From the IMG/VR virus record IMGVR_UViG_2711768053_000015: 35,466 nt of DNA; one strand, given 5' to 3'. Position numbers and translations under genes: made by a program. The notes under the pieces are model-generated. The model was not told where the DNA came from. It worked only from the letters and a program-made list of their open reading frames with translations, and searched no databases. The first letter of the stretch is position 1. Each line of letters opens with the position of its first letter. Shown one piece after another: positions 22,083-24,212 of the stretch. Source of the stretch: a virus (taxonomy: Duplodnaviria > Heunggongvirae > Uroviricota > Caudoviricetes).

Positions 22083-24212
22083 ATGAGCACAAAATTCAGA
22101 ACCGTTATCACCACTGCCGGTGCAGCAAAGCTGGCAGCGGCAACCGCACCGGGAGGGCGGAAGGTCAACATTACCACGATGGCCGTCGGGGATGGCGGTG
22201 GTAAATTGCCTGTCCCGGATGCCGGACAGACCGGGCTTATCCACGAAGTCTGGCGACATGCGCTGAACAAAATCAGCCAGGACAAACGAAACAGTAATTA
22301 TATTATCGCAGAGCTGGTTATTCCGCCGGAGGTGGGCGGTTTCTGGATGCGTGAGCTTGGCCTGTACGATGATGCAGGAACGTTAATTGCCGTGGCGAAC
22401 ATGGCCGAAAGTTATAAGCCAGCTCTTGCCGAAGGCTCAGGGCGTTCGCAGACCTGCCGCATGGTCATCATCGTCAGCAGTGTGGCCTCAGTGGCGCTGA
22501 CCATTGACACCACAACGGTGATGGCGACGCAGGATTACGTTGATGACAAAATTGCAGAGCACGAACAGTCACGACGTCACCCGGACGCTTCGCTGACCGC
22601 AAAAGGTTTTACTCAGTTAAGCAGCGCGACCAACAGCACGTCTGAAACACTGGCCGCAACGCCGAAAGCGGTAAAGGCCGCATATGACCTTGCTAACGGG
22701 AAATATACTGCACAGGATGCCACTACAGCGCGAAAAGGCCTTGTTCAGCTCAGTAGTGCGACTAACAGCACGTCTGAAACGCTCGCCGCAACACCAAAAG
22801 CGGTAAAAGCAGCGTATGACCTTGCTAACGGGAAATATACCGCACAGGACGCCACCACAGCGCGAAAAGGCCTTGTCCAGCTCAGTAGCGCCACCAACAG
22901 CGATTCTGAAACGCTTGCGGCAACACCAAAGGCGGTTAAGACAGCGTATGACCTTGCTAACGGGAAATACACTGCACAGGATGCCACTACAGCGCGAAAA
23001 GGTCTTGTTCAGCTCAGTAGCGCTGCCAACAGTGATTCTGAAACGCTTGCGGCAACGCCAAAGGCGGTAAAGGTCGCGTATGACCTTGCTAACGGGAAAT
23101 ACACTGCACAGGATGCCACCACAGCGCGAAAAGGGCTTGTTCAGCTCAGTAGCGCCACCAACAGTGATTCGGAAACGCTGGCCGCAACACCAAAAGCGGT
23201 GAAGTCTGCCTATGACAATGCTGAAAAACGTCTTCAGAAAGATCAAAATGGCGCGGATATTCCTGATAAAAGATTATTCCTGCGCAATATTGGAGCAACA
23301 AATTCAACAACCATGTCTTTTAGTGGTGGTACAGGATGGTTCAGGCTGGCAACTGTAACCATGCCACAGGCCAGTTCCGTGGTTTACATAAGTCTGATTG
23401 GTGGTGCCGGATATAATGTTAACTCCCCTATGCAGGCTGGTATATCTGAACTTGTTCTTCGTGCGGGGAATGGAAATCCAAAAGGTCTTACTGGTGCGTT
23501 ATGGCGACGGACATCGGTTGGATTTACTAATTTTGCATGGGTGAATACATCCGGTGATACCTATGATGTTTATGTTGAAATAGGTAATTACGCCACAGGT
23601 GTTAATATTCAGTGGGATTATACCAGTAACGCCAGCGTAACGATTCATACATCACCAACTTATACAGCGAATAAACCAACAGGCCTGACAGATGGAACTG
23701 TATATGTAATTTACAGTTCGCACATTAAACCGACTGCTGCTGATGTTGGGGCGTTGTCATTATCTGGAGGTCAATTGAATGGTGCACTGGGCATCGGAAC
23801 ATCCAGTGCTCTTGGCGGTAACTCGATTGTTTTGGGTGATAATGACACGGGCTTTAAACAAAATGGCGACGGTAATCTGGATGTTTATGCTAATAACGTC
23901 CATGTTATGCGCTTTGTCTCCGGTAGCATTCAAAGTAATAAAACCATAAATATTACGGGGCGTGTTAATCCCTCGGATTACGGTAACTTTGATTCCCGCT
24001 ATGTCCGGGATATCCGGCTTGGTGGTGCTGCCACATACAAACCAGCGAACAATGGCATGACATGGACACACCAGGCACCGTCCGGGTGTGTATATTCTGG
24101 CATTATTGTTCAGGATACCGGCTCAAACTCTGCCGATAACATTGGTGGCGTATATTACAGGCCGGTTCAGAAATACATTAACGGGACATGGTATAACGTG
24201 GCGCAGGTATAA
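22083..24212 (+). CDS. H: Tail fiber protein H (709 aa) with an internal tandem-repeat array
   Basis: ORF track; conserved N-terminus, repeat block, variable C-terminal receptor-binding region; followed by G. Confidence 0.9.
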   Translation: MSTKFRTVITTAGAAKLAAATAPGGRKVNITTMAVGDGGGKLPVPDAGQTGLIHEVWRHALNKISQDKRNSNYIIAELVIPPEVGGFWMRELGLYDDAGTLIAVANMAESYKPALAEGSGRSQTCRMVIIVSSVASVALTIDTTTVMATQDYVDDKIAEHEQSRRHPDASLTAKGFTQLSSATNSTSETLAATPKAVKAAYDLANGKYTAQDATTARKGLVQLSSATNSTSETLAATPKAVKAAYDLANGKYTAQDATTARKGLVQLSSATNSDSETLAATPKAVKTAYDLANGKYTAQDATTARKGLVQLSSAANSDSETLAATPKAVKVAYDLANGKYTAQDATTARKGLVQLSSATNSDSETLAATPKAVKSAYDNAEKRLQKDQNGADIPDKRLFLRNIGATNSTTMSFSGGTGWFRLATVTMPQASSVVYISLIGGAGYNVNSPMQAGISELVLRAGNGNPKGLTGALWRRTSVGFTNFAWVNTSGDTYDVYVEIGNYATGVNIQWDYTSNASVTIHTSPTYTANKPTGLTDGTVYVIYSSHIKPTAADVGALSLSGGQLNGALGIGTSSALGGNSIVLGDNDTGFKQNGDGNLDVYANNVHVMRFVSGSIQSNKTINITGRVNPSDYGNFDSRYVRDIRLGGAATYKPANNGMTWTHQAPSGCVYSGIIVQDTGSNSADNIGGVYYRPVQKYINGTWYNVAQV
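22605..23222 (+). repeat. About 4.7 in-frame tandem copies of a 132-bp (44-aa) unit inside H
   Basis: Unit starts at 22605, 22737, 22869, 23001 and 23133; protein repeat GLVQLSSATNS(T/D)SETLAATPKAVK(A/T/V)AYDLANGKYTAQDATTARK. Confidence 0.9.

Follow-up and report, generated by a model that had tools for sequence, protein, structure and literature searches.

The subject of this analysis is gene H, the P2-type tail fibre gene of a P2-like E. coli prophage (Caudoviricetes) on a 35,466-nt stretch of DNA (IMG/VR record IMGVR_UViG_2711768053_000015; the whole stretch is called the window below). H contains an array of 44-aa repeats, and very probably this array consists of five known repeats in series that are old paralogues, make up the proximal shaft of the fibre and change by in-register exchange. 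The parts of H on which this reading depends are the following:

22083–24212, plus strand: gene H, P2-type tail fibre protein of 709 aa, identified by its open reading frame (ORF), Pfam, gene order and a known protein
22083–22535, plus strand: N-terminal domain of H, aa 1–151, presumed baseplate docking (PF12571 Phage_tail_fib, tail-collar fibre, 196.9 bits)
22569–22700, plus strand: repeat unit 1, aa 163–206, with its first 12 residues diverged
22701–22832, plus strand: repeat unit 2, aa 207–250, with 92–95% identity to its counterpart in other alleles and phages
22833–22964, plus strand: repeat unit 3, aa 251–294, middle-type by register and divergence analysis
22965–23096, plus strand: repeat unit 4, aa 295–338, middle-type by register and divergence analysis
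23097–23228, plus strand: repeat unit 5, aa 339–382, ending DNAEK into the linker, placed by the protein register

Tandem Repeats Finder, run on the region, returned a single strong array at 22623–23216 (period 132, 4.5 copies, 88% matches, 0% indels, score 866). An earlier reading of the letters alone, hereafter the original prediction, had described an in-frame 132-bp tandem repeat at 22605–23222, and its 618 nt, or 4.68 units, proved accurate against both this array and the protein register, in which five in-frame 44-aa units span 22569–23228 (starts at 22569, 22701, 22833, 22965, and 23097). Pfam assigned five stretches of H to Phage_fiber_2 (PF03406, "Phage tail fibre repeat"), with a score of 324 bits (cut-off 22; E 5.3e-99), the best of them at aa 170–210, covering profile positions 1–41 of 42. 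With a score above the gathering threshold and a phage tail fibre protein as host, the array belongs to this curated family and is known in kind and in sequence; NCBI and UniRef already list the exact 709-aa protein (P0028), named "tail fiber protein." Unit 1 clearly shares its last 32 positions with the other units, and of its first 12 only D6, A7, K12, and G13. The units of the window differ at position 24 (T/D), at position 37 (A/T/V/S) and, in unit 4, at position 21 (T/A), the first two being the sites of the T/D and A/T/V differences noted earlier. Among 343 internal units of close homologues, appreciable polymorphism was likewise found only at positions 24 (D/T) and 37 (A/V/T).

The age of the copies was judged from the divergence between them. 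Units 2–5 are about 95% identical as protein and 82–89% identical as DNA over 132 nt, so that the copies, which had been called near-identical, are so as protein but not as DNA. The highest identity of any pair in the array was 89.4% over the full 132 nt and 88.3% over nt 1–120, and the longest in-register identical runs between units measured 11–32 nt and never exceeded 32 nt; the near-identical DNA units that mark a variable-number tandem repeat or a slippage locus were thus not found. The 32 variable columns are distributed 6/4/22 over the three codon positions, with third positions dominating and most changes being synonymous. Between units of the window, the proportion of differing synonymous sites (pS) was 0.33–0.44 and that of nonsynonymous sites (pN) 0.03–0.10, and the ratio of the two substitution rates (dN/dS) was about 0.02–0.19 for units 2–5 and 0.02–0.11 in their common core. 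As judged from this codon-position pattern, strong purifying selection acts on the repeat unit, a conserved protein module.

The units were then compared with those of eleven other H genes (E. coli alleles of four, five and six units, P2, P2_AC1, 12474II, and vB_YpM_115). Units 1, 2, and the last of the window were mostly 92–100% identical to units at the same position elsewhere, against 72–88% for their paralogues in the window. For the core of unit 1, identity was 93–99% to the first unit of other alleles and 74–81% to the other window units. Unit 5 was 92–100% identical to the last unit in six of nine further multi-copy alleles, and two of the exceptions (L011 and L013) have conversion tracts. 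Because same-position units are closer than paralogues, the five-unit arrangement predates the divergence of the compared alleles, and by this comparison the repeat copies of the window are old paralogues and not fresh duplicates.

A search of 5426 complete E. coli genomes found the full-length H gene in 65, of which 40 were listed. In 38 of the 40 listed genomes H was one ungapped piece of 2130 nt at 96.4–99.9% identity, and in the other two it was exactly 132 nt shorter; at least 38 complete E. coli genomes therefore carry the same five-unit gene. These genomes bear on the worry, voiced with the original prediction, that the array length is an artefact of assembly collapse or expansion. Tandem repeats longer than a read can in principle be mis-assembled; here, however, the units differ at 11–18% of positions, so ordinary reads place each of them uniquely, and hundreds of contigs of varied origin encode the identical 709-aa protein or close variants of it. 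The 38 ungapped genomes and the distinctness of the units together answer the concern, and an artefact has a negligible probability.

Copy number does vary among related prophages, as the comparison proposed with the original prediction brought out. Among the best 120 protein clusters, 92 were of 709 aa (five units), 22 of 665 aa (four units), two of 745 aa (six units), and four of 753 aa (six units). The four-, five- and six-unit alleles have the same N-terminal and distal parts, and their flanks are 97–99.8% identical as DNA; at least 38 genomes spanning 96.4–99.9% identity nevertheless keep exactly five units. The four-unit allele L002 consists of units 1, 2, 3, and 5, and no unit-4-type copy was found in it; the 753-aa allele has an extra unit 2 that is 96.7% identical to the adjacent copy, and the 745-aa allele L006 has three unit-4-type copies that are 95–97% identical. 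Adjacent units of 95–97% identity occurred in six-copy alleles only, and the middle-type units 3 and 4 are those duplicated, lost or hybridised in other alleles. Hybrid units, with a 5′ part of one type and a 3′ part of another, were seen as unit 3 of both 12474II and 13P477T (type 3 then type 4) and as the last unit in strain G6/7 (type 2 then type 5).

Furthermore, the arrays of five-unit alleles differ from one another by 5.6–9.4% and their flanks by 0.4–2.5%. Of the array differences between five-unit alleles, 75–82% carry the base found at the same offset in another unit of the window, compared with 9% expected under random substitutions, 21% if only third positions change and 36% if only third-position transitions occur; even against the last and most conservative of these nulls (0.36), p ranged from 1e-5 to 3e-10. 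The excess of templated differences, together with the hybrid units, points to gene conversion between units in the wider family. Efficient RecA-dependent exchange in E. coli requires roughly 23–27 bp of identity; set against this need, identical runs of 11–32 nt should leave the array stable and yet permit occasional exchange. The literature searched on Phage_fiber_2, on P2 gpH repeats and on fibre repeat number versus length yielded no account of copy-number variation in P2-like H.

The original prediction had taken the array for the trace of recent slippage or recombination, that is, for an array expanded in this prophage by slippage or unequal crossing-over, with young copies and an unstable locus. 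The whole-unit copy differences between alleles with so similar flanks agree with such an expansion, as do the two six-copy alleles whose adjacent units, at 95–97% identity, are plausibly recent duplications. In the window itself, however, no pair of units exceeds 89.4% identity or shares a run longer than 32 nt, pS is high, the units are closer to their positional counterparts in other phages than to their neighbours, and the same five-unit gene recurs ungapped in at least 38 complete genomes, which makes a recent expansion here very improbable. These alignments bear out recombination between units for the wider family, but not a recent event of this kind in the window array; the part of the prediction that spoke of exchange has stood, and the part that dated it has not.

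We also examined how far the module has spread. A HMMER scan with H residues 1–175 over 1.84 billion cluster representatives gave 5550 relatives. A hidden Markov model of the unit placed one or more copies immediately behind the N-terminal domain in 149 of the best 150 of these gpH-type fibres. Most had one copy (94 fibres), the others two (38), three (11), four (4), five (1) or six (1), with an overall range of 0–6, and the sole five-copy entry of this 150-fibre survey was the representative of the window allele. Five copies is thus at the upper end of a normal range.

The DNA similarity of window H to other phage H genes stops at unit positions 36–40, right after the invariant ATPKAVK, and in other fibres the last ATPKAVK core is followed by many unrelated modules. 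The repeat DNA also matches, at about 85%, lambdoid Stf-type fibre genes ("prophage tail fiber N-terminal domain"), and some match to it was found in 2874 of the 5426 complete E. coli genomes, at a median of two places per genome. Module junctions at the repeat core and matches to Stf-type genes fit the shuffling of tail fibres at conserved motifs, a long-established picture (Sandmeier 1994, as cited in PMC8986868).

Within the repeat, hypervariability is confined to position 37, directly after ATPKAVK (window codons at 22677, 22809, 22941, 23073, and 23205), where different units and alleles have A, V, T, S or Y, and similarity to other phage H genes breaks off at this same point. The site may lie on the protein surface or be a scar left by recombination joints. 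A diversity-generating retroelement was considered for this site and rejected: no reverse transcriptase is annotated in the prophage, and the units that vary are paralogues of one another, unlike the template and variable copy of such an element.

The closest well-known relative, P2 gpH (AAD03286.1, 669 aa), is 96% identical to window H up to residue 242, where its second ATPKAVK ends (aa 1–251 aligned). It differs in having two units in place of five and in the roughly 240 residues after the second ATPKAVK, which are unrelated to the window protein and are followed by related tip motifs. The two lengths, 709 and 669 aa, had been given correctly, but their difference does not measure an expansion: relative to P2 gpH, window H has 132 aa more of repeat and 92 aa less elsewhere, and the longer part after the P2 array is a different module.

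The second P2 unit resembles no single unit of the window. Together with the mosaic junctions at the repeat core and the Stf-type matches in so many E. coli genomes, this agrees with another origin, in which the five units were assembled by unequal recombination between already diverged fibre genes from different phages (P2-like H, lambdoid Stf, and the S genes of Mu and P1, the latter resembling Mu S), each of which carries the repeat. Positional orthology shows that the arrangement is old, not how it originated, and so does not decide the matter. We regard such an assembly as possible, though on balance doubtful.

No closer view of the array came from structure. An AlphaFold2 monomer of full H (81-sequence alignment) had a mean predicted local distance difference test score of 64.8, with 81–97 in the N-terminal domain and 40–75 in the array, where the low-confidence model gave a short helix on TPKAVKAAYDLA, repeated at intervals of 44 residues, and nothing more. 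The only PDB sequences containing the repeat were Mu S entries, and in the cryo-electron microscopy of Mu the N-terminus of gp49 alone was built, a crystal structure being used for its C-terminal part (PMC11915804). By analogy with P2, Mu and L-413C (PMC9594776, PMC7460101, PMC11915804), gpH is presumably trimeric, sits on the virion and binds a host receptor; baseplate docking by its N-terminal domain is likewise suggested by the P2 and Mu literature (PMC11915804).

We propose that the five Phage_fiber_2 copies form the proximal shaft of the presumably trimeric gpH, between the docking domain and the distal part. Purifying selection holds the amino acids of the units nearly constant and lets their synonymous sites drift apart, in an arrangement older than the divergence of the E. 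coli prophage alleles that carry it. Over the long term, units would exchange sequence in register by homologous recombination (gene conversion and unequal crossing-over), which would patch individual units and at times add or remove one 44-aa unit, giving rise to the four- and six-copy alleles. Each unit would lengthen the shaft by a fixed amount, and copy number would thereby set the length or reach of the fibre, and the conserved ATPKAVK core may double as the joint for swapping distal modules. The repeat array is thus probably both a shaft spacer and a recombination joint.

Several points weigh against this proposal. The length contributed per unit and the role as a spacer are put forward beside a low-confidence model of the array; the test for templated differences assumes simple mutation nulls, and shared ancestral polymorphism could inflate the templated fraction; and the division into four-, five- and six-unit genomes rests on 40 listed of 65 full-length matches. 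In addition, divergence of the units in place and their assembly from already diverged fibre genes are both compatible with the data. A stronger functional claim, that copy number is an adaptive dial independent of the receptor-binding tip, with four-, five- and six-unit versions of one tip kept in prophage populations, with reach matched to hosts of differing O-antigen or capsule thickness and with synonymous divergence selected against collapse in length, appears rather improbable.

Other carriers of the repeat help to place the shaft proposed here among known systems. The PF03406 proteins lambda Stf (where the repeat was first noticed), E. coli Stf-type prophage fibres and the collagen-like EPclB (PMC3368898) have the same 44-aa repeat, but they are siphovirus side fibres with a PfN N-terminal domain (PF08400) and differ in copy number and context. 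The Mu tail fibre S (gp49; PDB 5yvq, 9ki1, and 8ju3) has a Phage_fiber_2 unit, then the same linker as H, NGADIP.K.LF..N.G, and a related C-terminal tip, with unit 5 of the window aligning to its residues 104–150; it differs in its single unit and in a distal part carried by the invertible G segment, on which Gin acts. Other Peduovirus H alleles (E. coli phage vB_EcoM-12474II, Yersinia phage vB_YpM_115, and the E. coli prophage alleles of 665, 745 and 753 aa) share the N-terminal domain and the repeat, and their first, second and last units correspond by position; they differ in having four or six units and, in 12474II and vB_YpM_115, other distal modules.

Beyond the array, H continues into a linker and a distal part:

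23229–23306, plus strand: Mu-S-like linker, aa 383–408, RLQKDQNGADIPDKRLFLRNIG..., aligned to Mu S at about residues 150–175 (PDB 5yvq and 8ju3)
23307–24209, plus strand: distal part, aa 409–709, presumed receptor binding, with a P2/Mu/T4-like tip by sequence matches

A Mu-S-like linker after the last repeat is also present in several other gpH-type fibres. In H the linker KDQNGADIPDKRLFLRNIG is homologous to the Mu S stretch NGADIPNKPLFIQNLGLQE, and no invertase is annotated in the prophage. That Mu stretch includes the crossover site at which Gin inverts the G segment, and the H linker may be a relic of invertible fibre systems or a joint common with them. An invertible-segment fibre of the kind of Mu Gin/G or P1 Cin/C, which the Mu-like linker had suggested, was itself rejected: besides the lack of an annotated invertase, there is only one distal part of H and one G. 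The inverted repeats in 22000–27300 were imperfect ones of 20–36 nt, and the distal H/G pair is not bracketed by any of them.

The distal part, which presumably binds the receptor, is unrelated to the middle region of P2 gpH and has tip motifs in common with P2 at aa 575–709; aa 575–708 matched PDB entries of Mu S, a short tail fibre, and gp37. The best phage matches to aa 383–709 were the Yersinia pestis phages vB_YpM_5, vB_YpM_6, and vB_YpM_39 (83% protein identity over the full length; genomes of 37–49 kb), and part of the distal half matched an E. coli record of 108 kb, the size of a phage-plasmid. The distal half was not found in the listed P2-like phage isolates. From these matches, the tip of H is apparently common to different phage types.

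The assignment of H to P2-type gpH follows from PF12571, which is homologous to P2 gpH, and from synteny in the late operon, where genes run V-W-J-I-H-G in P2 itself and in the EC21 prophage. H is placed between the baseplate gene I and a chaperone gene:

24216–24743, plus strand: gene G, tail fibre assembly chaperone (PF02413 Caudo_TAP, 115.8 bits; annotated so in EC21)

The P2-like prophage of E. coli EC21, with an H that is 99.9% identical, has the same V-W-J-I-H-G order and adjoins ogrK/yegQ. The likeness to P2 extends to the position of H, its C-terminal tip motifs and the G-type chaperone downstream. The NCBIfam scan gave no match for H, and the hits to TPR_20 (22.7 bits, below the cut-off of 25) and gp37_trimer (18.7 bits, below 21.7) were not used as family assignments.

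One further frame crosses the array:

22617–23246, minus strand: antisense ORF of 209 aa with a TTG start, a by-product of the repeat (ORF list)

The original prediction had listed this frame as spurious, and rightly so. Its openness over 209 aa is the only feature in favour of a real repeat protein, and the frame is open because one stop-free unit is repeated. Twenty-two of the 32 variable columns fall on codon position 3 of H, which is codon position 1 of the antisense frame, so changes that are synonymous in H alter antisense amino acids and the peptide is not conserved between units; moreover, RefSeq annotates no such gene in EC21. The probability that the frame encodes a protein is vanishingly small.

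Side observations were made at two cargo positions of the P2 map and in the replication gene. Between G and the sheath gene, at the P2 Z/fun position (24744–27229), lie a 304-aa ORF at 25187–26101 on the plus strand and a convergent ORF of about 171–191 aa at 26250–26825 on the minus strand, neither of which had a match in Pfam, PADLOC, PHROGs or NCBIfam. In relatives the same slot holds DUF6602 and SIR2_2 (L004 and L011), DUF5677 and an integrase-like gene (L006), a "lysogenic protein" (L002) or, in P2 (L003), fun(Z); it is a variable cargo or defence hotspot, occupied here by two uncharacterised genes. The cargo is bracketed by an inverted repeat of 36 nt (86% complementary, 24796–24831 and 27011–27046), whose first arm includes a GC-rich hairpin, GTCCGCTC...GAGCGGAC, at the site of the V-operon terminator of P2; the repeat may mark the boundaries of an exchangeable cassette.

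The second P2 cargo slot, after gene A at the tin/old position (6502–10023), holds three genes, namely a C5 cytosine DNA methylase (PF00145; PADLOC MTase_II, 5e-100) and, on the opposite strand, a Methyltransf_35 putative O-methyltransferase (PF20553, phrog_19983) and a 474-aa HATPase_c_3 protein, a GHKL-type ATPase (phrog_20521). PADLOC had no match for the latter two, and the slot may be an uncharacterised modification or defence module. The ORF of replication gene A itself (4120–6225, 701 aa, PF05840) has a counterpart in EC21 that is annotated "incomplete; missing C-terminus"; a defect in replication of the prophage is possible, as is an alternative C-terminal end of A at the cargo insertion.

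As a discovery the array is of small value, for the repeat is curated in Pfam, the protein is already public and the shuffling of fibres has long been described. It does provide a small and clean example of units that stay constant as protein, diverge at synonymous sites and swap patches by gene conversion. It also suggests two design rules for engineered fibres of the P2 or R-pyocin type: one to six units are tolerated behind the same P2 docking domain, and a natural splice point lies just past ATPKAVK, at unit positions 36–40.

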